In this document: piece after piece, positions 2-28,359 of the stretch
Numbering within the stretch: position 1 is the stretch's first letter
How the letters are laid out: each line of letters begins with the position of its first letter
NCBI GenBank assembly: GCA_027625315.1
Contig: JAQBWE010000003.1
Location: 1 to 36,728 of the forward strand
From: Planctomycetota bacterium
Lineage (GTDB): Bacteria; Planctomycetota; PLA2; JAEUHO01
Direction of reading: 5' to 3'
Length of the DNA stretch: 36,728 nucleotides
Notes under the pieces: model-generated
The model's input: the letters and a program-made list of their open reading frames with translations, nothing else
Database searches by the model: none
What the model was told of the DNA's origin: nothing
Translations under genes and position numbers: made by a program

Positions 2-1147
2 TTGCGGCGCGCGGCCACCGAAGCTCGAGGGGTGGACCTCGAGCGGGCCCGCGACTTCGCAGCCGCGGAAGCGGCGCGGCACCACCTCTTCTACGGCTGT
101 GCCAACATCACGCAGTACGGACGCTTGGTTGGCTTTGACGGTCGCCGAGCGCGTGAGTACGCCGCTGCGGGTCGTGTGATCGAGCGCCATAGTCCGGCCG
201 CACAGGCCCTGCTCAGCGGAGTCATCGGTATCGAGGCCCTGGCGGCGCTGGAGCCGTTGTTCACGCAAGCGGATCTGCGTCTGCTGGATGAAGAGGGCAA
301 GCAGCTCGACGACGCGGCGACCCTTGCCTGGGCGGCCGTGCGCCCTGAGCGCGAGATCCGCGATGCGGTCATGCGACGCAAGGAAGAGGTCCGCGCGCAG
401 GCTGTGATTGTGAGCCGCACGCTGCATTTGACGCGCCAGGGCGCGCGCGACTTGGAGCGTACGCGCGTGCTGGTCTCACGGAGCGAACGGCGGCCGCTAT
501 CGATGAGCGAGGCCGCGGCATGCGCGTTTCGTGAGTTTGTCGCGCGCCATGACTCGTTGGAGCGTAGTGCCGGATCGAGGCGTTTGCCGGCGATGCCACG
601 ACGTGCGGATGGACAGCGTCACCCGCGGGCCATACCCGCCGAGGTGAAGCGCCAGTTGATGCGGACGTACGGCGACGTCTGTGCGATCGAAGGCTGCGAC
701 CACGACATCTGGCTCGAGAACGCTCACCATGTTCCTCATGCCCTGGGCGGAGGCAACGAGCTCGAAGACCAGCAGCGCATCTGCGCCGTCCATCACCGCA
801 TGAAAGACCACGGCGAGCTCAGGTGGGTTCCCCTCGGTGGCCCGGATACCTCGCAGGGTCACTACCTGACGCCAGAGGGGCGGATCGTGCGGCTGAGGCC
901 CGCTGATGGGGTCAGGGAGCGCGCGCCGCCGCTGGCGGTCTCGCGGGCTCGACGGCGAAGGCCGAAACCCAGACAGAGGCTCCAGGTACGGCCTGCTGGA
1001 TACGGGATCCTTCGCGTCGCTCGACGCGCTCGTAGGCTGGACGATCCGCACCATGCAGACCCCGACACAGGGCTGGATCCGCTTGGCCCTGGTGGCGCTG
1101 CCGATCACCGCGGTCTTGGTCGCGTGCGGCCAGCCCACTACAGATGA
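2..1147 (+). CDS. HNH endonuclease domain protein (DUF222-like architecture), 5'-truncated by the window edge
   Basis: C-terminal Zn/HNH signature CAIEGC...AHHVPHALGGGNELEDQQRICAVHH preceded by 'RAIPAEVKRQL'. The last ~70 codons are low-complexity and the final 95 nt overlap the next gene, so the functional end is uncertain. Confidence 0.75.
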   Translation: MRRAATEARGVDLERARDFAAAEAARHHLFYGCANITQYGRLVGFDGRRAREYAAAGRVIERHSPAAQALLSGVIGIEALAALEPLFTQADLRLLDEEGKQLDDAATLAWAAVRPEREIRDAVMRRKEEVRAQAVIVSRTLHLTRQGARDLERTRVLVSRSERRPLSMSEAAACAFREFVARHDSLERSAGSRRLPAMPRRADGQRHPRAIPAEVKRQLMRTYGDVCAIEGCDHDIWLENAHHVPHALGGGNELEDQQRICAVHHRMKDHGELRWVPLGGPDTSQGHYLTPEGRIVRLRPADGVRERAPPLAVSRARRRRPKPRQRLQVRPAGYGILRVARRARRLDDPHHADPDTGLDPLGPGGAADHRGLGRVRPAHYR

Positions 1148-3407
1148 TCCGGTCGCGGTCAGAGCGGCCGCCTTGGAGTATCAACACGCGGTTCCAGCGG
1201 TGCTTGAGCGCTATTGTCTTGAGTGCCATGGAGCCGAGGATCCTGAGGGTGGATTCAGCCTCGGGGCGTATCTGCCCGCGTTAGTCCCACCGGCCGCGGC
1301 GCAGATCCGTTCGTCTACGGCGGTCCTAGAGCGGCTCTCACATCACGTGAGCGGCGGCCTGATGCCGCCTGAGGGCAGTCCTCCCGTCCCTGAGGCGGAG
1401 CGGGAGCGCTTGACTGCTTGGATCGCAACTGCGATCGACCGTGCCTGGGTTGAGGCGGGACCCGATCCGGGTCGCGTGACCATGCGGCGTCTGAGCCGCT
1501 ATGAATACCGCAACACGGTGCGCGACCTGACGGGAGTGGACTATGACCCGAATGTCCGCTTCCCGGCAGACGACGTGGGCTACGGATTCGACCACATCGG
1601 TGACGTGCTGACGTTGCCCCCGGTACTCCTCGAGAAGTACATGGAGGCGGCCGAAGAGATCACGGCGCAGGCTCTCGTGGTTGTGCACGCTGACACGCCC
1701 GATGTGCGCGTGCGCAGGGTCGAGGCGGAGGCCGCTTCGCGAAGCGACGGTGCTGCCCTGGCCGCGGACGGGGTCTCGCTCAACTCAGTGAGCGATGTCT
1801 CAGCAATCCTGGCATTTCCAAGGGCGGGGTACTATCTGCTTCGCGCGCGCGTTCGGCCGACGCAGGCAGGGCCCGATGCTGTGCGGGTGCAGTTCGCGGT
1901 CGAGGACCGGGTCGTCGCCGACTTGCAGGTCGCGGAGCTGACCGGGACAATCGTTGATCGCTCTGTGCGGGTCCGCATGGGACGCGGCCAGCGCCGAATC
2001 TCAGTTCGCTTCCCGAACGATTACTACCAGCCTAATCACCCGGATCGCTCCCAGCGGGATCGGAACCTGTTCGTGGACTGGTTCGAAATCGAGGGTCCGG
2101 AGGAAGTCGAGCAGGGCGTCGAGCTCGACTCATTCCTCCCATGCGAGCCCAAGCCAGGGCGGGAGTCGGAGTGCGCCGAGGCGTACCTTGGGCCCTTGCT
2201 CGCACGCGCATTCCGACGGCCTGCAACGCCAGATGAGTTGCAGCGCTACGTGAGCTTGATGCTTGAGACCGTTGCGGCGGGAGAGTCGTTCGAAGGAGCC
2301 GCTCAGGTTGCGCTGCAGGCAGTACTCGTAGCACCGCAGTTCTTGTTTCGCATTGAGATGGACGCGCCGGGAGCTGACCGCAGCCGACCGCTCAACGATC
2401 ACGAGTTGGCCTCCCGGTTGAGCTACTTCCTTTGGAGCTCGTGCCCAGACGAGGACCTCGCAGCGGCTGCAGACTTGGGGATGCTCCGAGTAACGTTGCA
2501 TGAGCAGGTGGCTCGCATGCTCGCGGATGCGCGCTCACAGTCACTGGTCGAGAACTTCGCCGTTCAGTGGTTGGAGCTTCGCCGACTTGATACGGCCGCG
2601 CCAGATGCGCGACGCTTCAAGGCCTTTGATGAGGCATTGCGGGCCTCCATGCGACGAGAGACCGAGCTCTTTGTCGAGGCGATCATCACTGAGGATCGCA
2701 GCATCCTGGACCTCATCGACGCACCCTTCACGTATCTAAATGAGGCTCTCGCGGCGCACTATGGAATCGGCGGCGTTCAAGGAGACGAGTTCCGGAGGGT
2801 GGACCTGCCTGACGCGCGCCGCGGCGGCCTCCTGGGTCAGGCCTCGATCCTCACACTTACGAGCTTCCCGCACCGCACGTCACCCGTCCTGAGGGGGAAG
2901 TGGGTGCTCGAGGAGATCCTAGGTCAGCCTCCTCCGCCTCCGCCTCCGGGCGTGGGCACGCTAGAAGCCCAACCAACGGAGTTCCTGAAACTCTCGCTGC
3001 GGGAGCGTCTCGCGCGGCACCGGGCGGACCCTGGTTGCGCCGGCTGCCACGACACCATGGACAACCTGGGCTACGGGCTGGAGAACTTCAACGCGATCGG
3101 TGGCTGGCGGACGCGTGATGGCGCGACCACCCTGGACACGCGAGGTCAACTCCCCGATGGCCGTACATTCGAGGGCCCGGCGGAGCTGCGTCGTATCCTG
3201 CGCGCGGACCCGGGCTTCCCTCACTGCTTCGCAGAGAAGCTGCTGACCTACGCGCTGGGGCGTGGCCTGGAGCCCTTCGACCGGCCCGCACTCAAGCAGA
3301 TCACACGCGAAGCCCGGAGAGGTCAACTGCGCTTCTCGGCGTTCGTGCACGCTGTGGTGGCAACCGACGCGTTTACGATGCGTCGTACTCATGGAGAATC
3401 CCGATGA
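1053..3407 (+). CDS. DUF1592/DUF1588/DUF1587/DUF1585/DUF1595 (PSD) family protein with cytochrome c motifs, probable lipoprotein
   Basis: ATG 1053 gives a signal peptide with lipobox-like VLVAC. Heme motifs CLECH and CAGCH; family motifs RRLSRYEYRNTVRDL, ELASRLSYFLWSSCPD, RTSPVLRGKWVLE, EKLLTYALGRGL; an inserted CBM-like segment (FPNDYY...DRNLFVDWFEIEGP). Confidence 0.92.
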   Translation: MQTPTQGWIRLALVALPITAVLVACGQPTTDDPVAVRAAALEYQHAVPAVLERYCLECHGAEDPEGGFSLGAYLPALVPPAAAQIRSSTAVLERLSHHVSGGLMPPEGSPPVPEAERERLTAWIATAIDRAWVEAGPDPGRVTMRRLSRYEYRNTVRDLTGVDYDPNVRFPADDVGYGFDHIGDVLTLPPVLLEKYMEAAEEITAQALVVVHADTPDVRVRRVEAEAASRSDGAALAADGVSLNSVSDVSAILAFPRAGYYLLRARVRPTQAGPDAVRVQFAVEDRVVADLQVAELTGTIVDRSVRVRMGRGQRRISVRFPNDYYQPNHPDRSQRDRNLFVDWFEIEGPEEVEQGVELDSFLPCEPKPGRESECAEAYLGPLLARAFRRPATPDELQRYVSLMLETVAAGESFEGAAQVALQAVLVAPQFLFRIEMDAPGADRSRPLNDHELASRLSYFLWSSCPDEDLAAAADLGMLRVTLHEQVARMLADARSQSLVENFAVQWLELRRLDTAAPDARRFKAFDEALRASMRRETELFVEAIITEDRSILDLIDAPFTYLNEALAAHYGIGGVQGDEFRRVDLPDARRGGLLGQASILTLTSFPHRTSPVLRGKWVLEEILGQPPPPPPPGVGTLEAQPTEFLKLSLRERLARHRADPGCAGCHDTMDNLGYGLENFNAIGGWRTRDGATTLDTRGQLPDGRTFEGPAELRRILRADPGFPHCFAEKLLTYALGRGLEPFDRPALKQITREARRGQLRFSAFVHAVVATDAFTMRRTHGESR

Positions 3408-4792
3408 GCTCGCCCCGGCCGTTTGCCCGGAACCCCCTGAGCCGCCGAACGGTCCTTCGCGGCGTGGGTGCCGCCTTGGCCCTGCCGTGGCTCGAGGGCA
3501 TGAGCGGTGCCATGCGCGCCCTAGCCAGGGCTGAGGATGCACCTGCCCACCCCCGCAGGCTCGCATTCCTGTTCATGCCGAACGGCGCGCACATGGCGGA
3601 TTGGACACCGGCGTTGGAGGGTCGTGCGTTCGCGCTGCCGTGGATCTTGGAGCCGCTCGCGGCGCATCGAGACGACCTCCTTGTGCTGTCCGGACTTGCG
3701 CAGGATCAGGCTCGTGCGCATGGTGACGGGCCCGGCGACCATGCCCGCAGCGCCGCAGTGTTCCTCACAGGCGCGCATCCAGTGAAGACGGGCGGCGCCA
3801 ACCTGAGGGTCGGCGTGTCGGTCGATCAGGTGGCCGCTAGGGTGGTCGGAGCCGAGACTCGGTTCGCTTCGTTGGAGCTCGGCGTTGAGGGCGGCCGCTC
3901 CAATGGCGAGTGTGACTCTGGGTACAGCTGCGCCTACTCGAACAACATCAGCTGGCGCGGCCCTTCAACGCCCAGCTCCAAGGACGTCGATCCGCGAGTT
4001 GTGTTCGAGCGCCTGTTCTTGAATGGGAAGCCCGGGGAGACTGATGCGGCTCGCGAACGCCGCATTCGGCGGCGCAAGAGCATTTTGGATTTCGTGGGCG
4101 AGGACGCGCGTGCACTGAGAGATCGGCTAGGTGTGGCCGATCGGGCTAAGCTCGACGAGTACCTAGCCGGTGTCCGTGAGCTCGAGGCCCGCATCGAGAA
4201 GACGGAGCGGCTCCGCGTTGACCCCACTGGTGCCGCCGCATCGTTTCCAGCCCCTACGATGACACGCGATGCTCTGCGGGAGGATCGGCGCGAACACATT
4301 CGGATCCTCTGCGAGCTCCTCGTCTTGGCCTTTCAGACGGACACGACGCGCGTTGCTACGTTCATGCTCGGGAATGGCGGGAGCAACCTGGCCTATCCCC
4401 AGGCCGATGTTCGGGAAGGGCACCACGGTCTGTCGCATCACGGAAATGACCCAGACAAGATCGAGAAGATTCGGCGGATCAACCGATTCCACATCGAGCA
4501 GTACGCCTACCTCCTCTCGCGGCTCCGCGAGGTTCGGGAGGGAGACGGCACGCTCCTAGACAACTCCCTGATCATGATCGGGAGCGGAATCGGCGACGGG
4601 AATCGGCACAATCACGACGATCTACCCATCCTGCTCGCAGGACGGGGGGGCGGGACTGTGCGGCCGGGGCGCCATGTCGCCTACGCGCGCTCAACGCCGC
4701 TCAACAACTTGTACCTCTCGATGCTCGACATAGCGGGGGCTCCGACGAAGAGCCTCGGGGACGGCACAGGAGCCCTGCCCGGCCTGGGCTAG
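3404..4792 (+). CDS. DUF1552 (HXXSHH) family protein, Tat-like leader
   Basis: LSRRTVLRGVGAALALPWLE leader; CDSGYSCAY and GHHGLSHH motifs; ATGA overlap with the DUF1592 gene, its usual partner. Confidence 0.93.
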   Translation: MSSPRPFARNPLSRRTVLRGVGAALALPWLEGMSGAMRALARAEDAPAHPRRLAFLFMPNGAHMADWTPALEGRAFALPWILEPLAAHRDDLLVLSGLAQDQARAHGDGPGDHARSAAVFLTGAHPVKTGGANLRVGVSVDQVAARVVGAETRFASLELGVEGGRSNGECDSGYSCAYSNNISWRGPSTPSSKDVDPRVVFERLFLNGKPGETDAARERRIRRRKSILDFVGEDARALRDRLGVADRAKLDEYLAGVRELEARIEKTERLRVDPTGAAASFPAPTMTRDALREDRREHIRILCELLVLAFQTDTTRVATFMLGNGGSNLAYPQADVREGHHGLSHHGNDPDKIEKIRRINRFHIEQYAYLLSRLREVREGDGTLLDNSLIMIGSGIGDGNRHNHDDLPILLAGRGGGTVRPGRHVAYARSTPLNNLYLSMLDIAGAPTKSLGDGTGALPGLG

Positions 4793-4866: not shown

Positions 4867-6984
4867 ATGCGGTTCCGAGCTCTCGTACTCCTGGGGCTGC
4901 CACTTCTTTGCTGCGCGGTTCTACGAGAGCCGGCGGCTTCGGACCCGCTCCCGGCGCGCGTGGCGGGCGAAATTGTGCTTCGTGGCGACCCCGATGGACT
5001 CGCCGCCGTCCGCTTCGTCCCCGCGTTTCCCCAGCTGCGTTTCCAACGTCCGCTCTGGGTTGGCAGTCCTCCGGGTAGGACCAACGAACTCTGGGTGCTT
5101 GAGCAGGACGGACGGATCTGGGCATTCGAGAACCGGTTGGAGGTGACGGAGCGTCGGCTCGTCCTCGACATCTCCGAGAAGGTCTACCGCCGGCACAACG
5201 AGGAAGGGCTGCTGGGCCTCGCGTTCCATCCTGGCTTCGCCCGCAACGGCCGCGTGTACATCCACTACTCCGCAGACGGCCCTCGCCGCGGCGTCGTGGC
5301 CCGCCTCCAACTGTCCGCCGATCGAACGCGGCTTGACCCGACGAGTGAGTCGCTGGTCCTAGAGCAGGCTCAGCCGTGGGGGAACCACAACGGTGGCGGA
5401 CTCGAATTCGGTCCGGACGGCTATCTCTACGTGTCGTTCGGCGATGGAGGAGCCGCGAACGACCCACTCGGCAGCGGCCAGGATGTGTCTACGTGGCTTG
5501 GGGCCATGCTGCGGATCGATGTGGATGCGGGCGAGCGCTACGCAGTGCCGACCGACAACCCGTTCATTCATCGTGCAGGAGCTCGTCCTGAGATCTGGGC
5601 CTACGGCCTGCGCAACGTGTGGCGATTCTCCTTCGATCGCGTGACAGGCGCGCTTTGGGCGGGTGACGTCGGCCAGAATGCATGGGAGGAGATCGACATC
5701 CTTACGGCTGGAGGCAACTACGGCTGGAACGCACGCGAGGGACACGAGGCATTCCGGCGCGGCGTGAAGCAGAAGGACATGATCGATCCGGTGGTCTCGC
5801 ACCCCGTCCAGGAGGCGCGGTCCATCACGGGCGGCTATGTGTATCGGGGCTCAGCGGTACCAAGCCTGCAAGGTGCGTACGTGTACGCGGACTACGCCAC
5901 GGGCTGGATGTGGGCGCTGCGCTGGAGTGGATCGGCGGTGACGCAGCAGATGCGGCTTGGGCGCGGTGGGCCGGTATCAAGCTTCGGAGAGGATGGGAAG
6001 GGCGAGCTCCTGTTCGCGAGCTTTGACGGTCGGCTCTACGGCTTTGCGCCGGTGGGCGCGGAGTCGGAAGGCGTGTTTCCGCGACGGTTGTCGGCCACCG
6101 GCTTGTTTCTCGACACGCAGGCGATGGTGCCCAATCCAGCGCTCATCCCGTATTCGGTCAACGTACCCCTGTGGGCGGATGGGGCGGAGAAGAGCCGCTA
6201 TGTGATGCTTCCGCGCATGGAGCGCATCCGCGTGGATCGCGATGGCTCGTATCGCTATCCAATCGGCACCATCTTCGTGAAGACGTTCCTGGCGGGCGAG
6301 TTCCGACTTGAGACGCGGCTACTTGTCCTCCGCGAGAATGGCTGGGCAGGGTTCACGTACGCCTGGGACGACGCCCAGGAAGATGCAGTCCTTCTGGATG
6401 CGCGCGTGAACCGACCGCTATCGGATGCCCTTGCGGGACAGCTCGCGTCCAAAGTCTGGACCTATCCTGGCCGTGCAGATTGCACGAGCTGCCATACGGC
6501 TCAAGCGGGCTTCATCCTTGGATTTCGAAGCGAGCAGCTAGATCGACCGCGTGCTGTAGGAGCGGGGAAGCAGGAGAACCAGCTCCAGGCATTCGCACAC
6601 ATCGGTCTGTTCGACGGCGAGCCGCGAAGTGATCCCGCCTGGCCGGATTGGACCGAGACACGAACCGATCCCACGGCACAGGTTCGCGCGTACCTCGATG
6701 CCAACTGTGCCTACTGCCACCAGCCGGGCGGCACCGGGAACGCGCGCATCGATCTGCGCTATGGCACGCCGCTCGGCGAAGCTCGACTTGTCAACGAGGC
6801 GCCGGGCCAGGGCGATCTCGGCGTACTCGGCGCGCGAGTTGTCGTGCCGGGGCAGCCCAAGGCGAGCCTGCTGTATCTGCGTATGCTCCGAACCGATGCG
6901 GCCGGCATGCCCAATCTTGCTCACAATGCGGTTGACCCAACTGCCGCTGCGCGCGTGCGTACGTGGATTGAGTCGCTGCGCTAG
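4867..6984 (+). CDS. PQQ-dependent sugar dehydrogenase (GSDH-like beta-propeller) fused to a di-heme cytochrome c domain
   Basis: Signal peptide; EEGLLGLAFHP, NHNGG, FGPDGYLY, EIWAYGLRNVWRFSFD, DVGQNAWEEID; C-terminal CTSCH and CAYCH heme motifs. Confidence 0.9.
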   Translation: MRFRALVLLGLPLLCCAVLREPAASDPLPARVAGEIVLRGDPDGLAAVRFVPAFPQLRFQRPLWVGSPPGRTNELWVLEQDGRIWAFENRLEVTERRLVLDISEKVYRRHNEEGLLGLAFHPGFARNGRVYIHYSADGPRRGVVARLQLSADRTRLDPTSESLVLEQAQPWGNHNGGGLEFGPDGYLYVSFGDGGAANDPLGSGQDVSTWLGAMLRIDVDAGERYAVPTDNPFIHRAGARPEIWAYGLRNVWRFSFDRVTGALWAGDVGQNAWEEIDILTAGGNYGWNAREGHEAFRRGVKQKDMIDPVVSHPVQEARSITGGYVYRGSAVPSLQGAYVYADYATGWMWALRWSGSAVTQQMRLGRGGPVSSFGEDGKGELLFASFDGRLYGFAPVGAESEGVFPRRLSATGLFLDTQAMVPNPALIPYSVNVPLWADGAEKSRYVMLPRMERIRVDRDGSYRYPIGTIFVKTFLAGEFRLETRLLVLRENGWAGFTYAWDDAQEDAVLLDARVNRPLSDALAGQLASKVWTYPGRADCTSCHTAQAGFILGFRSEQLDRPRAVGAGKQENQLQAFAHIGLFDGEPRSDPAWPDWTETRTDPTAQVRAYLDANCAYCHQPGGTGNARIDLRYGTPLGEARLVNEAPGQGDLGVLGARVVVPGQPKASLLYLRMLRTDAAGMPNLAHNAVDPTAAARVRTWIESLR

Positions 6985-6993
6985 CGCGGTGAG

Positions 6994-7563
6994 TTAGGAC
7001 CCGGAGAGGACCGTGCCCGTGCGGTGGATGCGTTCGAGGGCGGCGGTGCGATCACGGTCGGTGGGCAAGAGCCAGCGGTCAAACCCCCGTCGCCAGACGC
7101 GACCCGCCGGGGGCCGAGCCCAGCCGTGGTACTCCGTGCCCCGTAGGTACGCCTTGGTTGTGGTGAACTTGAGCCACCTGATGATGACGCGTAGATGCTC
7201 GGGATCATCAAGTGCGGCTTGGGAGGAGGAGAAGAAGCGGACAATGCCGAGGACACCTCTCGGACCGATGGCGAACGGCTCCAAGCGCACATGCAGGTAC
7301 CGCTGGGGGAGCTGATACCAGTAGTGGCGAACTGCGAGGCCAAAGCCCGACAAGGTTCCGAAAGCACCACCCCCGTCGGCCCCCGCGTCGGCCTCGGTGG
7401 CGGAATCGGTGGCGGAATCGGTGGTGGAGCCGCCGCCGGCGCTGTCTGGCGCGTGCGCAAGCAGCCCAGTTACGTGAGGCTCAATCGTGAGCCCTAGCAG
7501 ATACCGCTGCGGAGACGCATGGGCGAACCCGGTGGTCGCAGAACGAGGAGGACCCAAGATCAT
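6994..7563 (-). CDS. Degenerate REP-associated tyrosine transposase (RAYT/Y1 HUH)-like protein lacking catalytic residues
   Basis: Follows the RAYT pattern along its whole length (LSGFGLAVRHYWYQLPQRYLHVRLEPFAIGPRGVLGIV; IIRWLKFTTTKAYLRG...HGW...GRVWRRGF), but PNHxH reads PRGVL and the YIxxNP Tyr region reads RIHRTG. By-eye alignment only. Confidence 0.65.
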   Translation of the reverse strand: MILGPPRSATTGFAHASPQRYLLGLTIEPHVTGLLAHAPDSAGGGSTTDSATDSATEADAGADGGGAFGTLSGFGLAVRHYWYQLPQRYLHVRLEPFAIGPRGVLGIVRFFSSSQAALDDPEHLRVIIRWLKFTTTKAYLRGTEYHGWARPPAGRVWRRGFDRWLLPTDRDRTAALERIHRTGTVLSGS

Positions 7564-7587
7564 GCCAAGCCCTCGCGGCTCGGCATG
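7561..7587 (-). terminator. Stem-loop after the selenoprotein stop, possible terminator or attenuator
   Basis: Minus strand CATGCCGAGCC-GCGAG-GGCTTGGCATG forms an 11-bp stem with one G-U pair, 16 nt after the TAG at 7604. The U-tract is weak (ATCTT), and the 3' arm contains the ATG of the RAYT-like gene. Confidence 0.4.
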
Positions 7588-7603
7588 CGGGGGTCACACT
7601 TGG

Positions 7604-8599
7604 CTACTCAGCAGCTTCGAGCTCCGCGATCAGCGCGGCCGCGGCCTTGCCCGCCCGTGTATCGCGGTAGGACTTCCCCGTCATCGGGGCGAGGGCCTTC
7701 AGGGTCTTCTTGCTGGACATGCCGCGAATCTCCGCGCGGATCTTGGCGAAACGGTCCCCTGCTTTGATCTCGTCCTTCTTCTCGCCATCGGAGAGCAACT
7801 CCGCGGCCAGGCTCGCAGCCCGCTTGCCAATCGCGCTGCCCTTGTAGCCCTTGGAGATGTCCTCGTAGGCGACCCACGCCTCGTAGAAGTCGCCCGCCTC
7901 AGCGGACTTGCCGGCCTCTGTGACGGTCGACTCCGCGTACCACGTGAGCCAGGTGTCAATCTTTGTGGCGACGGCCGCATCGGCTTCTTCGAGCTTGCCG
8001 CCCTCGATCGCCTTGAGTACCGCCGTCTGCGCGTCGGCGAACTTCTCCTTGTCGAACTGCTTGCGCGCACTCGCAAGAGCCTTGGGGAACTCCGGCAGGA
8101 TCTGCGCTTGCTGGAGGGCTTCCTCGATGACGCTGTCTTGGAGGTTGCCGGGGTGACCGGTCCAGAGAATGCGTCCGTCGGGCCCAATGAGGAACGACGA
8201 CGGGTAACTGTTGCACCCGTAGTTGCTCATGCTGTCCGAACTCTCGAGAACGATCGGATGCTTGGCGCCGGTCTCCTCGACGAACTTGTCGACTGCCGCG
8301 CGGTCCTGCTTCGTGATCGCGAGGATCGAGAGACCCTTGTCGGACATCTCCGCGTGCAGCTTGTCCAGGTGAACCACCTGGGTCTTGCAGGGGCCTCACC
8401 CGGTGCTGAAGAGCTCGATGAACACGATTCGGCCGCGCAGCGACTTGAGATCGACCGGCTCCGAGTTGACGAACTCCTTGCCCTCAAAGTCGGCGGCGCG
8501 ATCACCCACGCCGAGGACCACGCCCGCGTGAACGGGGGTGGCAACGGTTAGCGCCAATCCGGCACCGAGCAGCAATCCGAGTGTTCGCAGCGTGCGCAT
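7604..8599 (-). CDS. Exported thioredoxin-fold redoxin (TlpA/AhpC-TSA-like) selenoprotein, U68-G-P-C71 active site, 331 aa
   Basis: ORFs 8396..8599 and 7604..8377 are in one frame: ...RGRIVFIELFSTG-TGA-GPCKTQVVHLDKL. The TGA (8398-8396) sits at the first Cys of CxxC; cis-Pro motif SYPSSFLIGPDGRI; signal peptide ending VHA; GGAGG RBS before ATG 8599. Confidence 0.92.
8365..8381 (-). promoter_or_regulatory. Putative bacterial SECIS hairpin
   Basis: CCAGGTG-GTT-CACCTGG is a perfect 7-bp stem starting 15 nt after the UGA. The apical loop begins G-U at +22, matching the bacterial SECIS consensus. Confidence 0.8.
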
Positions 8600-8663
8600 A
8601 CGTAGGCCTCCGTCGAGAGAGCCCCAGTGTATGCGACGGGCCCCGCCAAGCCTCGCAGACGGT

Positions 8664-9800
8664 TCAGGGCCTCAGAAGGACCAGGGCCCCAGCTTGGCCC
8701 AGCAGGCCAGCGGAGAGCACGAGGGCACCGGATCCGGGCTCAAGGCTGGCCAGCGCGAGGGCGGCCTCGACGGCGTCGGCCGCCAGGCCGCAATGCCCCA
8801 GCTGGTCCTTGTACGCGCTCCGGCCTACGCCACAGGTCGCGGGCAGCCCATCCAGAGTCCGCTCGAGGTCAGACTGGCCTGCCCCGGGAACGACCACCAC
8901 CGCCAGGTCCTCAGCGACGGCTCCAGCCTCCGCGAGCGCGGCCTCCGCGGCCGAACACAGAGCCAGGGTGGACGGCGCTAGGGAACCGCCCCGCGGCGCA
9001 ACCGTCCGCCCCGCAGAGCCAACCACCACACCGCGGATCAGCGCCCCGCGGGCGAGGGCCTCTGCGCGCCGTTCGAGCACGAATGCCGCGGCACCATCAC
9101 CGGGCGCGAAGGTAAGCCCATGAGCCTGGAGCTCCGCGCGGGCCACTCCCGACGTGGGGCGGGCGGCGCCGAGCACGACCGCGGCGTCAAGTCGCCGCGA
9201 CCGAACGCTACGTACCGCCATGTCGAAACAGGTCCATGTGGGTCCTGCGTAGCCTGCGACGGAGGTGTTCGCACCGCGCAGGCCGTATCCGGTAGCTAGG
9301 AAACTGAACGCATTGTTCTTCAGGCTCTCGAGCATGAAGAACGGCTTGACGTGTCGCGCGGCGGCGCGGTTCAAAACCTGCGCATCGATGTCGGCGTCGA
9401 GATCCTCGGTGGCCGCGCGGAACGCGTTGTGGAACTCAGGGCAACTCCAGTCGTAGCTATCCATCTGGGCTAGGTACAGGCCGCGGCGCGCATCCGGATA
9501 GGGGCTGGCGAGCAAGTTCGACGCTGCCACCGCCTCGGCACAGGCGTCGGCGGCAAGCCGACCCGCGCCGTTGAGGAACTTGATTTGCGGCTCGAGCTCC
9601 TCTGGGACCTTTGAGCGCAAGAGGGGTTCCGCGATGACGGCCGCGCGCGCCATCCCTGACCTAGGCGAGGCGTCGCCCTGCGCCGTAACCGCGCTGCGGC
9701 CCGTCAAGATCGCCGCGTGGCTGCTGGCTAGATCATGGCCAAGCGCCGTCACGCAACCCACGCCGGTGATCACGACGTCGTCGTCTCCGAGCGTTCTCAT
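8664..9800 (-). CDS. Non-catalytic ketosynthase-like protein (chain-length-factor-like)
   Basis: KS fold (VVITGVGCVTALG, GLRGANTS, PGDGAAAFVLE, KDQLGH), but the catalytic Cys position reads VAGYAG and the first His reads VVPGAG. Confidence 0.85.
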   Translation of the reverse strand: MRTLGDDDVVITGVGCVTALGHDLASSHAAILTGRSAVTAQGDASPRSGMARAAVIAEPLLRSKVPEELEPQIKFLNGAGRLAADACAEAVAASNLLASPYPDARRGLYLAQMDSYDWSCPEFHNAFRAATEDLDADIDAQVLNRAAARHVKPFFMLESLKNNAFSFLATGYGLRGANTSVAGYAGPTWTCFDMAVRSVRSRRLDAAVVLGAARPTSGVARAELQAHGLTFAPGDGAAAFVLERRAEALARGALIRGVVVGSAGRTVAPRGGSLAPSTLALCSAAEAALAEAGAVAEDLAVVVVPGAGQSDLERTLDGLPATCGVGRSAYKDQLGHCGLAADAVEAALALASLEPGSGALVLSAGLLGQAGALVLLRP

Positions 9801-10246
9801 GCGCTCGCCCCGCGCAGGACGGCAAAGGCCGCGCGTGCGCGCGCACCGGATTCGAGGCCTTCCAGGGGAATCACGCGCGCTTCAAACTCAATAGCGGCCC
9901 CGCGCTGACCATCCTGGCTGGTTTCGGCGCGGTAGGCGCGTCGCTCTGGGTCGTCGAGCGGCAGGCGCTCGAGGCGAATGTCCACACGATCCCCGGGGAT
10001 GGCGAACTTGTAGTAGCGAGCGCTGCGCACGTGATCGAGCAGCACCCAGTGTGCGAAGTCTGAAGACGCCGCCTCGAGCCAGCCGGCCAGCTGCGCGCAC
10101 GCCTCAAGGATCAACATGCCAGGCAGAATGGGGCGCTCGGGAAAATGCCACTCGAGGTAGTCCTCGCTCATGGCCACAGTCTTGAAGCCCTCGATACTCG
10201 TGTCGGGCGTCAGCGCCACGATGCGGTCAACGAGCAGAAATCTCAC
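9797..10246 (-). CDS. FabZ/FabA-like 3-hydroxyacyl-ACP dehydratase
   Basis: MRFLLVDRI; HFPERPILPGMLILEACAQ with catalytic His and Glu. Confidence 0.9.
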   Translation of the reverse strand: MRFLLVDRIVALTPDTSIEGFKTVAMSEDYLEWHFPERPILPGMLILEACAQLAGWLEAASSDFAHWVLLDHVRSARYYKFAIPGDRVDIRLERLPLDDPERRAYRAETSQDGQRGAAIEFEARVIPLEGLESGARARAAFAVLRGASA

Positions 10247-10650
10247 GATGCCTCCTTCGTGACCATGATGACCGACGCCAGCGCGTGGTCTCCATCGTGG
10301 GTGAGCGAAACTGTGGAGTCGGCGACTCCTAGCCGCTGGGCGTGCTCCGCGGGCTTGCCGTGCAGGGTTAGATGGGGGGCCGTCCCGCGGCGCACAACTT
10401 CGATGTCTTTCAGCTTGGGATCCACACCAGTAGGGGAGATCCCCAGGCCGAGCGCTTTTAGTGCGGCCTCCTTGGCGGCGAACCGCGCGGCGTAGTGCGG
10501 GACAGGGTTCGGAAGCCGATCGCAGTAAGCACGCTCAGCATCCGTAAACAGGCGCGCGGTGAGCTCGGGCTGGCGCGCGAGCAGGTCCGCGAACTTAGGC
10601 ACGTAGACCAAGTCGATTCCGTGGCGGAGGCGGGTGTGTGTCGTACTCAT
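10243..10650 (-). CDS. acpS: Holo-ACP synthase (4'-phosphopantetheinyl transferase)
   Basis: GIDLV, LFTDAERAYC, AARFAAKEAALKALG, VSLTHD. Confidence 0.95.
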   Translation of the reverse strand: MSTTHTRLRHGIDLVYVPKFADLLARQPELTARLFTDAERAYCDRLPNPVPHYAARFAAKEAALKALGLGISPTGVDPKLKDIEVVRRGTAPHLTLHGKPAEHAQRLGVADSTVSLTHDGDHALASVIMVTKEAS

Positions 10651-11402
10651 GCGATCGACAGTCCGCCGTCCACGACCAAGGCTTGGCCTGTGATGTACGC
10701 CGCCGCTTCAGATGCGAGGAAGGCGACGAGGCACGCCACGTCCTCGGGCTGCCCAAACCGTGCCTGGGGGATCTGCGCAAGCACTGTGTCGCCCGCGCGC
10801 CGCTGGATCACCTGGGTCATGTCCGTCTCGATAAAGCCGGGGAGGACGGCGTTCACGCGCACGCCCCGATCCGCGACCTCCAAGGCCGCAGCGCGGGTAA
10901 GTCCGAGCACGCCCGCCTTCGCCGCCGCGTAGTTGGCCTGACCGCGTCCACCGCGTAGGGCCTGGATTGACGCCAGATTCACGATGCTGCCCTTGCGGGC
11001 GCGCATCATGCTCCGGAGTGCCAAGCGCGTCGTGCGCATGAGTCCAGTGAGGTTGACGTCGATCACACGCTGCCAGTCGGCGTCGCGCATCGTGACAAGC
11101 AGCCCGTCCTTCACGACGCCCGCGTTGTTGATCAGAATGTCCAGATCGCCGTGCTGCTTGAGCACACCAGCGAAGAGCGCCTCTGTGCTCTCGGCGTCAC
11201 CGATGTCGCCCTGGACGGCCACCGCGTGACCTCCGGCGTCGAGGATCGACTTCGTTACGGCGTGCGCCTCTGCTTCGGAGGATCGGTAGTTCACGATGAC
11301 GTGCGCACCGCTCGCGCCGAGGCGACGCGCGATGGCCGCGCCGATACCGCGACCCGCACCCGTGACGAGGGCGACCTTGCCGCCTAGATCTACGCGAATC
11401 AT
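10647..11402 (-). CDS. fabG: 3-oxoacyl-ACP reductase (SDR)
   Basis: TGAGRGIG, NNAG, GQANYAAAKAG (YxxxK), PGFIETDMT. Confidence 0.92.
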   Translation of the reverse strand: MIRVDLGGKVALVTGAGRGIGAAIARRLGASGAHVIVNYRSSEAEAHAVTKSILDAGGHAVAVQGDIGDAESTEALFAGVLKQHGDLDILINNAGVVKDGLLVTMRDADWQRVIDVNLTGLMRTTRLALRSMMRARKGSIVNLASIQALRGGRGQANYAAAKAGVLGLTRAAALEVADRGVRVNAVLPGFIETDMTQVIQRRAGDTVLAQIPQARFGQPEDVACLVAFLASEAAAYITGQALVVDGGLSIA

Positions 11403-12694
11403 GCGTCCTCCTCTGCGGTGTACTTCTTCACCACGATGCAGGCGTTCTGACCGCCGAATGCGAAACTGTTGTTGAGGGCCGCGCGCACGGGCAACGCGCG
11501 ACCGCGGCCCGGGACCAAGTCGACATCGCAGCCCCGGTCGGGATGCTCGAGATTGGCCGTCGGCGGTACGGCATCCTCCTGGACAGCCTTCACACAGCAG
11601 CAGAACGCGACGCCAGCCGCGGCCGAGAGTAGATGCCCGAAGGCGCCCTTGCTGCTCGACACGGCGACGGTCGCGGCGTGCTCACCCAGCACGGCCTTGA
11701 TGGCCGTGATCTCGGCCGGGTCGTTGCGCTTCGTGCCGGTGCCGTGAGCGTTCACGAAGGCGACGTCGGCGGGGGAGACGGCGCCGTCCTCTAGGGCGTA
11801 CCGCATGGCCTCCTCTGCGCCGCGTCCGTCCGGCGGCGGGGCCGTCGTGCGAAAGGCATCCAGAGAGGCGCCGTAGCCCGCGACTTCCGCCAGGATGGTC
11901 GCCCCGCGAGCGCGCGCATGGTCGAGGGACTCCAAGACGACGACACCCGCTCCCTCGCCCATCACGAGGCCGGAACGCCGGCGATCAAACGGCCGGCAGG
12001 CCGAAGCGGGATCGTCATCGTCCACCTGCGCGGAAGCGCCCAGGAGAACGAAGAAGACCATTCCGAGCGGGTTGATCTGTGAATCGGAGCCGCCCGCCAG
12101 CACCCAATCGGTCTCGCCCGATCGCACGCTCCGCCACGCCATACCAAGCGCTTGGTTCGAGGCAGAGCAAGCCGTGGTGACCGCGTGGACGGGACCGCCG
12201 ATGCCGTAACGCGACGCGACGCAGGCGGCGGGCTGCTCCGCGGGCGCCCGCAGGATCGACTCCTGCTCAAGGTCCTTCAGCTGCCCGGCGAAGCGCACGG
12301 CGTCGAAGCGGCCGTCGGCATCCAGACAGCGCGCCACATCCTCAATCCGACTCGCCCCAGGTCCAGCACCGAGCATCACGCCGGCCCGAGGATGGTTCCC
12401 GGCCTCGAGTCCGGCGTGGGCGAGCGCTCGCCTTGAGGCCGCCAGCGCGAAGAGCGTGCGGGGGTCGACGAGGCGGGCCGCGTCGGGGCCCGCGCCCTCC
12501 GCTGCTTCCGCCCGCAGTGCGGCCACGACCTCGGGGGCGATCTCTCCGACGGCGCGGGTGGGCGGCCCATGCGGACCGAGCCGCTGCGGCGCAGCGACGC
12601 CGCGCTCGCCGGCCAACAAACGCTTCCACGCGGCGTCGATGTCACACCCCAAGGGCGTCACAATCCCCAGACCCGTGACCACGACGCGGCGCAT
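11399..12694 (-). CDS. Beta-ketoacyl-ACP synthase (FabF-like), catalytically intact
   Basis: Start ATG 12694 (MRRVVVTGLG) overlaps the upstream TGA. Cys-His-His triad: TACSAS, NAHGTGT, GHLLSAA; NSFAFGGQN. Confidence 0.93.
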   Translation of the reverse strand: MRRVVVTGLGIVTPLGCDIDAAWKRLLAGERGVAAPQRLGPHGPPTRAVGEIAPEVVAALRAEAAEGAGPDAARLVDPRTLFALAASRRALAHAGLEAGNHPRAGVMLGAGPGASRIEDVARCLDADGRFDAVRFAGQLKDLEQESILRAPAEQPAACVASRYGIGGPVHAVTTACSASNQALGMAWRSVRSGETDWVLAGGSDSQINPLGMVFFVLLGASAQVDDDDPASACRPFDRRRSGLVMGEGAGVVVLESLDHARARGATILAEVAGYGASLDAFRTTAPPPDGRGAEEAMRYALEDGAVSPADVAFVNAHGTGTKRNDPAEITAIKAVLGEHAATVAVSSSKGAFGHLLSAAAGVAFCCCVKAVQEDAVPPTANLEHPDRGCDVDLVPGRGRALPVRAALNNSFAFGGQNACIVVKKYTAEEDA

Positions 12695-13131
12695 CACGGC
12701 GTGCCGCCGTAGTACCGGAAGCGCTCGCGCATGACGTCGGGCTCTGGCGCGGGCACATGGGCGTACAGGATCCGCCCCGCGCTCGCCACGCGCACGCCGT
12801 CTACCTCGCAGTACGCACTGGCCATGGAGCCCTTCGGATTGGTTCCCCGCAGCTCGCCGACGATCTTCAGGGTTGTCCCCGGAGCCAAGTCCGCGGGCAG
12901 GGCAACATCTTCCAAGACGGAGAGTACGAGCGACACACCGTAGTTGTGACCGGCAATGGCCGTCCACGCGGTGAGCTGCAGCATGCTCTCAAGGACGAGC
13001 GAAGCGGGGTAGAGCGCCCGGCGCGGGAAGTGCTCCTTGAGCGCCTCGTCGGCCAGGGTGATGCACTTCACGCCCTCGATGCGACGCCCGGGCTCGAAGT
13101 GTGTGACGCGGTCGAAGAGCAGGAATCTCAT
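12694..13131 (-). CDS. Second FabZ-like dehydratase
   Basis: MRFLLFDRV; EHFPRRALYPASLVLESMLQ hot-dog motif. Confidence 0.85.
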   Translation of the reverse strand: MRFLLFDRVTHFEPGRRIEGVKCITLADEALKEHFPRRALYPASLVLESMLQLTAWTAIAGHNYGVSLVLSVLEDVALPADLAPGTTLKIVGELRGTNPKGSMASAYCEVDGVRVASAGRILYAHVPAPEPDVMRERFRYYGGTP

Positions 13132-14219
13132 GCGACCTCCACCAGCAAGGCCGCGGTGCCACCGCGCGAGCCACTTGCGAGAATGAGCGCGCAGCCGGGC
13201 TCGGCACGCAGCGCTACCTGCGCAAGTGCGAGATCGATCGCCGGCGCGGCCGTGCCGGCGTGCCCCAGGTGGCGCTTGGTGTGCACGGCGCGCGCGCCCG
13301 CGAGCCCCTGCGCGGCGACCGCGGCAAGCTCCTCGTCGTCATCGGCTCCGTGATGGAAGACGAACCGACACGACGACGCGCTGCGCTGACCCTCCGCGAG
13401 CGCCGCGATCATGGCGCGGCTCATGGCCGCGGCGTCGGGGCCTTGGCCGGAACGCGGGCCGAACGCACTGCCGCCTCCAAGGATGCGCAGCGTGCCGACG
13501 ACATCCGACTCGTGACGGACGAGCGCGCAGGCCCCAGCGCCTTCGGCGGGGGCCACACCTAGCAGTTGGCCCTCCAGCGCGAGTCGAGCCAGGGTGGCGG
13601 GCGTGATGCGACCCGAGGCGCCCCCCGCGAGGGCCGCATCGCAGTCACCCCGCGCCACACTCCGCGCGGCCTCAAGTAGCGCGCGCAGTCCTGCATCCGC
13701 GTCGGCGGACAGTACGAGGTTGTCGCCGCGAATATCGAGATCGATGGCGACCTGGCCGACGGCCACATTGCCGAGCATCGAGAGGGGCCAGAGCGGGTGC
13801 ACGGAACGGTAGCCCCCCGCGAAGAACGCGGAGAGCGAGAAGGCTCCGGTGGCGTCGCGCGAAGCCTGCGCGGCAGCTGCGAGATCGTGGACGGCGGCAT
13901 CGACCATGCCCATACCGACAAACAGCCCGACGCGCTCGCGCGGCACGGTCGCCAAACCGCCTGCGCTGTGCGCGGCGCGGCTGACGGCCTCGAACAAACG
14001 ACCGTGCGGGCCTAGGATGCGCAGCGCCGGGTCGTCCTCCGCATCCTCAGGCTCGTGCCACACCTGCGCCGCGCTGGGCGCTCCGAACCCGGAGGCATCG
14101 AAGCCCTCGATCGGGGCGAGGGCGGTGGCACCCGAGACGACGCGCTGCCAAACTTCGCGGGGATCGTCCCCGAGCGCTGTGCGCAGTGCAGTGGCGGTGA
14201 CGGCAACGTCCAGGGCCAC
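13128..14219 (-). CDS. Second non-catalytic ketosynthase-like protein (CLF-like)
   Basis: KS fold (HPLWPLSMLGN, IRGDNL, PAEGAGA, KRHLGHAG), but the Cys site reads LSADADAG. Confidence 0.85.
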   Translation of the reverse strand: MALDVAVTATALRTALGDDPREVWQRVVSGATALAPIEGFDASGFGAPSAAQVWHEPEDAEDDPALRILGPHGRLFEAVSRAAHSAGGLATVPRERVGLFVGMGMVDAAVHDLAAAAQASRDATGAFSLSAFFAGGYRSVHPLWPLSMLGNVAVGQVAIDLDIRGDNLVLSADADAGLRALLEAARSVARGDCDAALAGGASGRITPATLARLALEGQLLGVAPAEGAGACALVRHESDVVGTLRILGGGSAFGPRSGQGPDAAAMSRAMIAALAEGQRSASSCRFVFHHGADDDEELAAVAAQGLAGARAVHTKRHLGHAGTAAPAIDLALAQVALRAEPGCALILASGSRGGTAALLVEVA

Positions 14220-14318
14220 GCTAGCCGACTCGCTTCAGGCTGGGGCCGACGTATCGGCTGTGAAGTCCCACAAGGCGTCGGACCGCGGGTTCCTGCCGGC
14301 GCCTCGGAGCCATGGGGG

Positions 14319-15605
14319 CTACTTCCCTCCGGCAAGGGCGCGGGCGGCGGAGCCCAAGCAAACGCACGCGTTCTGGCCGCCGAAGCCGAAGGAGTTGGAG
14401 AGCGCGACATGGTGCTCGCGAGCGCGCGCCGCGTTGGGAACGTAGTCCAAATCGCAGCGCCGATCGGGCGCCTCCTGATTGATCGTCGGCAGCAACATGC
14501 CCGCCTGCATTCCCTTGAGCGTCAAGATGGCTTCAATCGCGCCCGCGGCACCGATGGTGTGGCCGATCATGGACTTGTTCGATGAAATGGGCACCTCGGC
14601 CGCGCGGTCACCGAACACGCGCTTGCACGCCATGGTCTCGGTCGGATCGTTGATGGGGGTGGACGTGCCGTGGGCGTTGACGTACTCGACGTCGGCCGGC
14701 GTCAGCCCGGCGTCGTCAATCGCGGCGCGCATGGCTCGTACGGCGCCGTCGGCCTCCGGGTGCATATCCGTGATGCGGTAGCCGTCGGCCGAGTCACCGT
14801 ACCCAAGGATCTCACCGAGGATCGGGCGTCCGCGAGCGAGCGCATGCTCGCGCGTCTCAAGCACGAGGATCCCGGCTCCTTCCCCGATCACGAAGCCGTT
14901 GCGACGGCGATCAAATGGCCGCGAGGCCTGCTCGGGCGAGGGATAGCGGCGCGAGAGGGCTCCGAGAATGGCGAAGCCGAGGTAGTAGGAGAACGACAGA
15001 AGCGGCTCTCCGCCGCCGGCGATGACGACATCGGCGCGACCCTCGCGCAGCAAGCGCAAACCCTCGCCCATTGCTTGCGAGCCCGCCGCGCACGCCGAGA
15101 CGATCGGAAACACAGGGCCCTGTGCGTCCAACAGATGAGCGAGCAGAGTCGGCGCGGTCTCGGGTGAGCGCGTGGTGAACTCGGAGGCGTCAAAGCGCGG
15201 ATCCGCACGGAGCGCGTCGACGTTCACTTGCCCATCTTCGCGCGCGTGGCGAGTCATGAGTTGAATCACGTCGCGATCCGGCACGCGCCCGTGGCCGCCA
15301 ATGGCGACGGCGATACGCTCGCGATCGGTGACCTCGTCCAATGCGGCCGTTCGCAAGGCCTCAGCCGCTGCGTGGCGGAGCAGGCGCAACTCCGTACCCC
15401 CGACCGCGTCAGAGGGATGCGCGGGAATCAGCCGGTCGACATCGATCTGAGCGCCGATGTCACAGGGCAGCCCTGTTGCGTCGAACCGCGTGAGGTGACG
15501 GACGCCCGAGCGTCCAGCCCGCATCGCCTCGAACGTCTCGTCGACGCTCGCTCCGAGGGCTGTGATCATCCCCCAACCGGTTACGACGACGCGGCGATCA
15601 GGCAT
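14319..15605 (-). CDS. Beta-ketoacyl-ACP synthase (FabF-like), catalytically intact
   Basis: MPDRRVVVTGWG; SACAAG, NAHGTST, GHTIGAAG, SNSFGFGGQN; ATG 15605 overlaps the end of the ACP gene. Confidence 0.94.
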   Translation of the reverse strand: MPDRRVVVTGWGMITALGASVDETFEAMRAGRSGVRHLTRFDATGLPCDIGAQIDVDRLIPAHPSDAVGGTELRLLRHAAAEALRTAALDEVTDRERIAVAIGGHGRVPDRDVIQLMTRHAREDGQVNVDALRADPRFDASEFTTRSPETAPTLLAHLLDAQGPVFPIVSACAAGSQAMGEGLRLLREGRADVVIAGGGEPLLSFSYYLGFAILGALSRRYPSPEQASRPFDRRRNGFVIGEGAGILVLETREHALARGRPILGEILGYGDSADGYRITDMHPEADGAVRAMRAAIDDAGLTPADVEYVNAHGTSTPINDPTETMACKRVFGDRAAEVPISSNKSMIGHTIGAAGAIEAILTLKGMQAGMLLPTINQEAPDRRCDLDYVPNAARAREHHVALSNSFGFGGQNACVCLGSAARALAGGK

Positions 15606-16167
15606 TGGCAAAGAGCTGCTTCTCGCGCTGCATATCGTGGATCCAGCGCTTGGTCAGCTCGTCGCCGTCGGGGTACTCCGCGTCCTTGCCACACCCCCCG
15701 CAGGCGACCTTGGTGCTGTCGTCGCTCTTCCACGAGGCGGCGCTGCACGCCGGACAGGCGTCGGGAAGATGGGCGATGATCTTCTCGACGGCGGTCGCGA
15801 TGGAACCTGGCGTGACGACGGCCGGCACCTCATCGGCGTATATGCCGGCCTTGATGCTCTCAGCCTCCGGGAACTGCTCGCGCAGCAGAGCGGCGGCGCC
15901 GGCGGTGATCTTGTTGTCACGGTCGATGGCGGTGCCCTCGCCGAGTTCCTCCTCAACGTGATCCAGCAGGAGCTGGCTTGCGAGGCGGATGCCGAAGACC
16001 TGCTCGAGCCGGAAATTGATGTCGAGGAAGTCGATCGAGGTGGCGCCCAGGTCGTTGATGATCGACTGCTCCATGCCGATGCCGTTCGCATCGATCCGCA
16101 GCGTCGTCGCCAGGGCAGCGCGGACCTCCTGGTCGATACGCTCGCGCGTCACAAGGGAATTGGCCAT
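15598..16167 (-). CDS. Extended acyl carrier protein with C-terminal CxxC-x14-CxxC putative zinc ribbon
   Basis: DLGATSIDFLDINFRLEQVFGI (Ser44 phosphopantetheine site); 189 aa; CPAC (138-141) and CGGC (156-159); GGAGG RBS. Confidence 0.88.
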   Translation of the reverse strand: MANSLVTRERIDQEVRAALATTLRIDANGIGMEQSIINDLGATSIDFLDINFRLEQVFGIRLASQLLLDHVEEELGEGTAIDRDNKITAGAAALLREQFPEAESIKAGIYADEVPAVVTPGSIATAVEKIIAHLPDACPACSAASWKSDDSTKVACGGCGKDAEYPDGDELTKRWIHDMQREKQLFANA

Positions 16168-28283: not shown

Positions 28284-28359
28284 TGGTGGAGCTGAGGGGA
28301 GTCGAACCCCTTACCTCCTGAATGCCATTCAGGCGCTCTACCAGGTGAGCTACAGCCCC
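28284..28359 (-). tRNA. tRNA-Ala (anticodon GGC)
   Basis: GGGGCTGTAGCTCACCTGGTAGAGCGCCTGAATGGCATTCAGGAGGTAAGGGGTTCGACTCCCCTCAGCTCCACCA: 76 nt, G3:U70 pair, encoded CCA. Confidence 0.98.

Follow-up and report, generated by a model that had tools for sequence, protein, structure and literature searches.

Is an in-frame UGA codon in a planctomycete genome, standing where a thioredoxin-fold protein is expected to carry its attacking cysteine, read as selenocysteine (Sec), or does it simply end a short protein? This question is raised by a locus in a 36,728-nucleotide (nt) stretch of DNA from a Planctomycetota bacterium (assembly GCA_027625315.1, contig JAQBWE010000003.1, positions 1 to 36,728), referred to here as the window, in which a first-pass annotation made from the sequence alone had recognised an exported redoxin with a U-G-P-C centre (U denoting Sec). 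The evidence described below makes it very probable that 8599..7604 of the minus strand is a single gene for an exported thioredoxin-fold selenoprotein, its UGA decoded as Sec via SelB and a downstream hairpin, and its product serving as a reductase in the periplasm. The selenoprotein gene is genuine, and standard gene callers split it at the Sec codon.

A gene divided at its Sec codon

The minus-strand frame runs from an ATG at 8599..8597 to a TAG at 7606..7604 and yields 331 residues if its sole internal TGA, at 8398..8396, is read through. Ordinary listing of open reading frames (ORFs) splits it into one ORF of 67 amino acids (8396..8599) and another of 257 (7604..8377). Around the recoded codon the residues are FIELFSTG-U-GPC-KTQVVHLD, so the TGA occupies the place of the attacking Cys of a thioredoxin CxxC motif and is followed directly by GPC, as had been read at first pass. 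Neither a sigma-70-like promoter nor an intrinsic terminator was found within 7300..8900.

Sec and Cys in one alignment column

The decisive evidence for Sec is comparative and comes from sequence alignment. When the read-through protein was searched against 40 related genomes, many full-length matches were found to carry exactly one TGA. Among 32 homologues (31 fetched sequences and the window's own gene), the column of the first redox residue in U-x-x-C holds TGA in 28, from 20 genomes including the window's own, and TGC or TGT in the other four, which read CGPC (L036) or CPHC (L047, L048, L049). The alignment with Cys-containing homologues that the first-pass annotation had suggested thus places Cys in the column of the TGA. 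The invariant columns (G32, G56, U/C68, C71, L78, G89, P133, and G142) extend to either side of the TGA. The Gly that had been noted at first pass in place of the usual Trp before the motif is not a trait of the family, as the orthologues vary at this point (STG-U, RTW-U, STT-U, ATW-U, SVT-U, and GTG-U).

The distribution of the two forms is also informative. The two relatives without either selA or selD, G036 and G040, have Cys-type homologues only, among them one at G040:C269. An apparent TGA match in G040 was rejected as a Sec form, its TGA being the true stop of a short CPPC redoxin. In public protein sets, full-length Cys homologues of the same architecture are represented by P0012 (333 amino acids, 42% identity, CGPC) and P0014, and Sec forms only by pieces of 256-258 amino acids that are unnamed or labelled 'hypothetical protein' (P0002-P0011). 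A search of genome contigs for related loci returned one distant match from Actinomycetota, with 23% identity, which gave no guidance on taxonomy or synteny.

TGA is at the same time an ordinary stop codon in this genome. It terminates 506 of 1274 long ORFs (about 40%; at least 300 codons, picked greedily without overlap). Within the window, where the first-pass annotation had described it as a normal stop, TGA ends 7 of the 11 neighbouring genes checked, and four ATGA/GTGA gene overlaps occur at 9797-9800, 10243-10246, 10647-10650, and 11399-11402. Five of the 28 Sec-form genes in the family themselves terminate with TGA, so that the same codon has two meanings inside one gene. The conserved TGA column, together with the common use of TGA as a stop, upholds the earlier claim that recoding is site-specific.

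Sec machinery and other selenoprotein genes

The window's assembly comprises 3.2 Mb in 342 contigs and is 92% complete. It contains a gene for tRNA-Sec (G000:C282:9173-9267; G000 denotes this genome), which scores 68.8 bits against an Rfam cut-off of 47 and is identified by ARAGORN as tRNA-SeC with anticodon TCA. SelB is present in two pieces. With 296.4 bits (cut-off 242), the N-terminal part (C67:20-1036) covers the first 324 model positions and is cut at a contig end, while the C-terminal winged-helix part (C243:2731-3594), likewise at a contig end, covers model positions 528-581. The frames C67:2-1309 and C243:2731-3594, both on the minus strand, appear as successive segments of a single protein of about 630 amino acids. 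The first-pass annotation had taken selA, selB, selC, and selD to be implied; tRNA-Sec and the split SelB bear this out in part, and neither selA nor selD turned up in the 92%-complete assembly. A complete genome devoid of Sec machinery, which had been named as grounds for abandoning the idea, is therefore not what was encountered.

In the relatives, selA occurs in 36 of 40 genomes and selD in 36 of 40, and the two genes are adjacent, as in G004 (C57:29656-30576 and 30663-31772). Because selA adjoins selD in these genomes, a single gap in the window's assembly would explain both absences. The closest relative, G005, has a selA interrupted by a contig end and yielded no selD. The selD matches are of interest in their own right, as 34 of the 37 above the cut-off carry one in-frame TGA, and SelD thus appears to be a selenoprotein itself in most of the lineage. 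The selD match of G019 (G019:C1:654443-655201) contains five TGA and one TAA; this nearly closed genome of seven contigs keeps two TGA-containing redoxin genes (L030, L044), and its selD could be a broken gene or could reflect indel errors of a long-read assembly.

The first-pass annotation had also expected that further selenoproteins were missed in this genome, and four were found. Each is a TGA-containing redox gene with a frame open on both sides of the TGA (Table 1). They encode a second exported Sec redoxin (27% identity to the window protein), a peroxiredoxin, a BCP-like protein, and a SelW-like protein.

The hairpin downstream of the UGA

A perfect hairpin with a loop beginning in GU, noticed at first pass, follows the UGA. 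It begins 14 nt downstream of the codon, and its GUU loop (8374..8372) begins 21 nt after it. As given in the legend to figure 2 of one paper, the model of the bacterial Sec insertion sequence (bSECIS) has a loop of 3-9 nt, a stem of 4-16 base pairs (bp), a G in the first two loop positions, a spacing of 16-37 nt from UGA to loop, and a free energy of at most -7.5 kcal/mol (PMC13188914). The window hairpin satisfies all of these constraints, with its GUU loop, 7 bp, 21 nt, and -9.7 kcal/mol.

Over the 28 Sec sequences the helix columns are 81.6% paired, as against 18-40% when the 3' partners are slid, and the closing pair is U-A in nine, C-G in five, and unpaired in 14. A paralogue clade of eight sequences (L037-L044), which a 14-residue insertion sets apart independently of the hairpin, has its hairpin 4 nt further upstream in six of eight, in the form GNCCA-GGU-UGGNC. 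On the eight clade sequences this shifted helix is 82.1% paired, as against 27-48% in slid controls, and one of its pairs is C-G in five, G-C in two, and U-A in one, and thus paired in all eight. The shifted helix was rejected as a family-wide element, as only 45.4% of cells are paired over all 28 sequences, no better than in slid controls. In the four Cys forms the hairpins are weak, at -1.5 to -3.9 kcal/mol. An Rfam scan of the window found no SECIS family, only a tRNA and a cobalamin riboswitch; this is not counted against a SECIS element, as bacterial SECIS hairpins are too short and varied.

Domains and fold of the protein

The read-through protein appears to consist of a signal peptide, a thioredoxin-fold domain, and a helical C-terminal domain, the arrangement that the first-pass annotation had described. 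The signal peptide was judged by eye, and a similar hydrophobic N-terminal segment is seen, again by eye, in every aligned homologue. In the AlphaFold 2 (AF2) model built from a 33-row alignment, the predicted local distance difference test (pLDDT) averages 92.2 and is low for residues 1-25, as expected of a signal peptide. The model has a thioredoxin fold at residues 30-165, which runs across the TGA position with pLDDT above 90, and is all-helical at residues 173-330. The redox motif lies at the start of helix 1, and P133 is the conserved Pro.

Profile and structure searches agree on a thioredoxin-type redoxin. Pfam AhpC-TSA (PF00578) matches residues 31-145 with an E-value of 4.9e-17 (62.5 bits against a cut-off of 26), and Redoxin matches residues 31-161 at 9.6e-15. 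Against the Protein Data Bank (PDB), the best Foldseek matches are the C-terminal domain of DipZ, DsbE, and ResA, with E-values of about 1e-8 and target-normalised template-modelling (TM) scores of about 0.8; chains of the peroxiredoxin type rank lower, with TM scores of about 0.62.

The C-terminal extension is less easily placed. Folded alone from a 31-row alignment, it gives eight helices with a pLDDT of 97.1. No Pfam family matches it at E≤1 in this protein, and the 31 members searched gave nothing significant. Among solved structures no clear relative emerged (best Foldseek E-value 0.26; best VIA-align Z 7.0 over 47 residues), and the domain's weak structural matches are generic proteins resembling tetratricopeptide repeats (TPR), namely BamD, YbgF, IpgC, and NrfG. 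Its neighbours in the ESM Atlas, which serve as leads only, are clusters that are unnamed or partly labelled TPR, with Planctomycetota as the commonest taxon.

Proposed function and mechanism

By the known bacterial mechanism, which would apply here, codon 68 would be read as Sec when SelB, loaded with GTP and Sec-tRNA(Sec), attaches to the loop of the downstream hairpin and delivers Sec once the ribosome reaches the codon. The signal peptide is predicted to be cleaved on export to the periplasm. There, Sec68 would be the attacking and Cys71 the resolving residue of the U-G-P-C centre. By analogy with the ResA/TlpA/DsbE family, the protein may act as a selenol/thiol-disulfide reductase that reduces the disulfide of a client via a mixed selenylsulfide, which Cys71 would resolve. 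The centre could then be re-reduced by a membrane protein of the DsbD/CcdA type, and one DsbD_TM protein is encoded in the genome (G000:C160, 166.9 bits). The helical domain may hold a substrate or partner protein, a guess that comes from its TPR-like shape. An extracytoplasmic Sec redoxin, as named in the first-pass annotation, is thus the predicted product, on the strength of the signal-like N-terminus, the modelled ResA/DsbE/DipZ-C-like fold, and the recoded TGA.

Evidence against the reading and alternative explanations

Several observations weigh against a Sec-decoded periplasmic reductase. Half of the Sec pathway was not found in the assembly: selA (PF03841) has no match in its 342 contigs, and the selD model finds nothing better than thiL, which scores 49.7 bits where the cut-off is 125. 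A simple scan that allows no bulges finds a hairpin of -7.5 kcal/mol or lower in only 16 of the 28 Sec forms, no hairpin at all in L046 and L050, and one of -1.2 kcal/mol in L045; elsewhere in the same 28 genes, 926 of 7927 codon positions (11.7%) satisfy the same constraints. The stem largely coincides with codons for the conserved peptide Q-V-x-H-L, chosen as a genome of 69% GC prefers; coding therefore accounts for part of the stem's conservation, and covariation is limited. An 81-nt stretch has as its minimum-energy fold another hairpin, with the UGA inside it (z-score -1.0); as a functional element this hairpin was rejected, its 5' arm not being conserved among orthologues when compared by eye. 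On balance, a SECIS role for the downstream hairpin is modestly supported; the hairpin is consistent with such a role without being the main evidence, and taken alone it is weak evidence for recoding. The location, enzymatic function, and electron donor proposed for the protein, and the part given to its helical domain, are all predictions, and the scores against the NCBIfam models lie below their cut-offs (ResA subfamily, 73.4 against 170; dsbE, 33.2 against 123; TlpA, 31.9 against 230). As judged from these sequence models, the protein is ResA/TlpA/DsbE-like but is not a member of the NCBIfam ResA, DsbE, or TlpA families.

Other accounts of the TGA differ in what they would require. An error of sequencing or assembly, or a pair of separate genes of 67 and 257 amino acids, would agree with the gene callers, which list the 257-residue piece as a protein. 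That piece has neither a signal peptide nor the attacking residue, the thioredoxin fold spans the TGA, and conservation of the TGA across 20 genomes makes a sequence error untenable. The whole stretch is reproduced identically by contigs of run X1, the probable source, and run X3, from another study, contributes a 151-nt contig over 8320-8470 with no change at 8396-8398; the TGC or TGT that the first-pass annotation had named as grounds for refutation was not seen in either. These contigs are of low depth and so are weak evidence against an error, yet with the rest of the evidence they leave this explanation with almost no probability. Read-through without Sec machinery, whether by a suppressor tRNA, by near-cognate insertion of Cys or Trp, or through a changed genetic code, is scarcely more probable. 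Nothing direct favours it, although a frame open on both sides of the TGA fits read-through of any kind. It is opposed by the wide use of TGA as a stop, by the position of the TGA exactly at the redox Cys of homologues, by the presence of tRNA-Sec and SelB, and by the restriction of genomes without selA and selD to Cys forms. Improbable too, if somewhat less so, is a relic, in which selA and selD have been lost, UGA terminates, and a decaying pseudogene yields only a 67-residue peptide. The failure to find selA and selD is what such a relic would lead one to expect. Against it, the genome retains tRNA-Sec and an open SelB frame, its five redox genes with an in-frame TGA are all open on both sides of that codon, one gap would remove the adjacent selA and selD together, and the closest relative displays a similar gap; moreover, the 3.2-Mb assembly falls short of the 3.8-5.1 Mb of genomes in the same genus.

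A different alternative accepts the selenoprotein and takes it to be a periplasmic peroxidase of the peroxiredoxin type in place of a protein-disulfide reductase. AhpC-TSA is indeed the best Pfam family, GSHPx is matched weakly (23.3 bits, cut-off 27), the genome also encodes two true Sec peroxiredoxins, and published lists label such proteins 'Prx-like'. The peroxidatic motif of peroxiredoxins is T/S-x-x-C(U). In the orthologues, the residue three before Sec is S, R, A, or G, with no conserved Thr or Ser; the UxxC motif is in the thioredoxin position, and ResA, DsbE, and DipZ-C are structurally closer than peroxiredoxin-type chains. A peroxidase is therefore unlikely, though it deserves more weight than any of the explanations that deny Sec. 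The reading preferred here is still that of a Sec-containing thiol-disulfide reductase.

Relation to known selenoproteins and redoxins

The gene belongs to a known class of bacterial UxxC selenoproteins that are Prx-like (peroxiredoxin-like) or Trx-like (thioredoxin-like), and as such it will not surprise a specialist. The portions of two papers that were consulted list selenoproteins named 'Prx-like thiol:disulfide oxidoreductase', 'Prx-like 1', or 'Prx-like 3', of PF00578 or PF08534 and with UxxC (PMC13188914; PMC2398784). The Global Ocean Sampling (GOS) study reports, in the part seen, 225 'Prx-like 1' (pfam00578, UxxC) and 68 'Prx-like 3' (pfam08534, UxxC) selenoproteins (PMC2398784). Compared by labels and not by sequences, the window protein shares with those described there the Pfam families, a UxxC with Sec first, the pairing of Sec and Cys forms, and a bSECIS; those passages make no mention of a C-terminal domain such as its 166-residue TPR-like one (PMC13188914; PMC2398784). 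As far as their text was covered, 'signal peptide' occurs in neither paper, 'periplasm' and 'ResA' do not occur in PMC13188914, and 'TPR' does not occur in PMC2398784. A literature search, judged mostly on titles and abstracts, turned up no paper naming a fusion of such a redoxin with a helical domain.

With ResA, TlpA, CcmG (DsbE), and the C-terminal domain of DipZ, the window protein shares the fold, a putative N-terminal export signal, a redox motif ending in xxC, and the conserved Pro. It differs from them in that Sec replaces the attacking Cys and in its extra helical domain, and its neighbourhood shows no link to cytochrome c maturation genes. The curated NCBIfam entry NF041054, 'ResA-like WAxxUGC motif-containing protein', likewise describes a ResA-like selenoprotein of about 350 residues. 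Membership of this family (WAxxUGC_long) was rejected: the gene reaches 37.5 bits where 300 are required, the thioredoxin domain alone aligns, and the motif there is U-G-C as against STG-U-GPC here. CnoX/YbbN proteins are thioredoxin-TPR fusions that are cytoplasmic and carry Cys or no active Cys. They too combine a thioredoxin fold with a TPR-like domain, and structure searches with the window protein gave no match to them in sequence or structure.

Family size and truncated records

A profile of the C-terminal domain retrieves 2132 cluster representatives at E≤0.001 and 575 at 1e-10. The best 150 of these include 44 of 300-370 amino acids, 101 shorter than 300, and five that are longer. Among the 44 full-length representatives, 23 have CxxC in the expected region and 21 do not (for example, P0054, P0055, P0065, P0073, and P0079); by eye, most of the 21 keep a single Cys at the second redox position, as in SAEC or SKPC. 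The family thus holds Sec, Cys, and single-Cys forms. Of the 101 short representatives, 28 begin at ..HL(N/D), immediately downstream of the Sec codon, as a protein cut short at that codon would; many family members are therefore probably mis-called. The other 73 begin further downstream and may be fragments.

The window's gene is itself stored as a 257-residue 'hypothetical protein' without signal peptide or catalytic residue, as are at least ten close public relatives. A wider interpretation is possible, although it is tentative and on present evidence somewhat doubtful. The gene may be a member of a large, uncurated family of periplasmic Sec redoxins that join a ResA/TlpA-like domain to a private TPR-like one. 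In nature, Sec forms would be the majority, mostly stored at about 257 amino acids; Cys, Sec, and xxxC forms would have interconverted often, and the helical domain would recruit a periplasmic client. If true, these bacteria would have a reducing pathway in their cell envelope that depends on selenium.

Knowledge of Sec decoding is unchanged by these results, and their value lies in annotation and in sizing the selenoproteome of the lineage. The gene adds a fifth selenoprotein to the genome, and it suggests that the lineage uses selenium in the cell envelope as well as in the cytoplasm. It also contributes a domain architecture and a set of Sec, Cys, and single-Cys variants with which the preference for Sec at this position could be investigated.

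Genomic neighbourhood

The features of the locus and its surroundings, together with the other TGA-containing redox genes of the genome, are collected in Table 1.

Table 1. Positions of the selenoprotein gene, its parts, neighbouring features of the window, and further TGA-containing redox genes of the same genome (entries beginning with G000).
Feature	Position	Strand	Remarks
Whole selenoprotein gene	7604..8599	minus	331 codons with one Sec-UGA, and a TAG stop; translated with TGA=U
Shine-Dalgarno-like GGAGG	8607..8611	minus	7-nt spacer to ATG; putative, read from sequence
Sec codon UGA (codon 68)	8396..8398	minus	First position of the U-G-P-C redox motif
bSECIS-type hairpin CCAGGUG-GUU-CACCUGG	8365..8381	minus	7 perfect pairs, -9.7 kcal/mol
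Signal-peptide-like N-terminus, residues 1-25 (...TPVHA/GV)	8525..8599	minus	Starts basic, then a hydrophobic core, and finishes in VHA, as judged by eye
Thioredoxin-fold redoxin domain, residues 31-161	8117..8509	minus	Pfam AhpC-TSA and Redoxin; Foldseek ResA/DsbE/DipZ-C
C-terminal all-helical TPR-like domain, residues 166-331	7607..8104	minus	AF2 model, eight helices
DUF1592/DUF1588/PSCyt-type protein with its DUF1552 partner	906-4792	+	Other side of the redoxin gene, in front of the dehydrogenase-like gene
705-residue glucose/sorbosone-dehydrogenase (GSDH)-like protein with C-terminal CxxCH motifs	4867-6984	+	Other side of the redoxin gene
Cobalamin riboswitch aptamer	28033-28200	minus	50.2 bits
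tRNA gene	28287-28359	minus	63.4 bits
Second exported Sec redoxin, same architecture	G000:C108:2676-3509	+	Signal peptide, GVG-U-GRC, helical C-terminus
Peroxiredoxin, FV-U-ATE	G000:C54:3349-3744	minus	In-frame TGA
BCP-like protein, TPG-U-T	G000:C322:11410-11793	minus	In-frame TGA
SelW-like protein, CAV-U	G000:C130:5655-5873	+	In-frame TGA

Contigs of further sequencing runs also touch the locus. A contig from the RNA library of run X9, from a related organism, covers 8401-8606 with five differences and stops 3 nt before the TGA, and nothing was drawn from it. Runs X2 to X18 match only small shares of the stretch, and no conclusion about habitat was based on them.

Upstream on the same strand, an overlapping run of genes of the type II fatty-acid/polyketide-like kind extends over 8664..15611, with two ketoacyl-synthase/partner pairs, a short-chain ketoreductase, a 4'-phosphopantetheinyl transferase, and a FabA-like dehydratase. 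A functional link between the redoxin and this synthase cluster is not claimed. The redoxin gene begins 64 nt past the last gene of the run, and ketoacyl-synthase and FabA-like genes lie beside the orthologue in 3 of the 11 relatives' loci with flanks (L020, L025, and L030).

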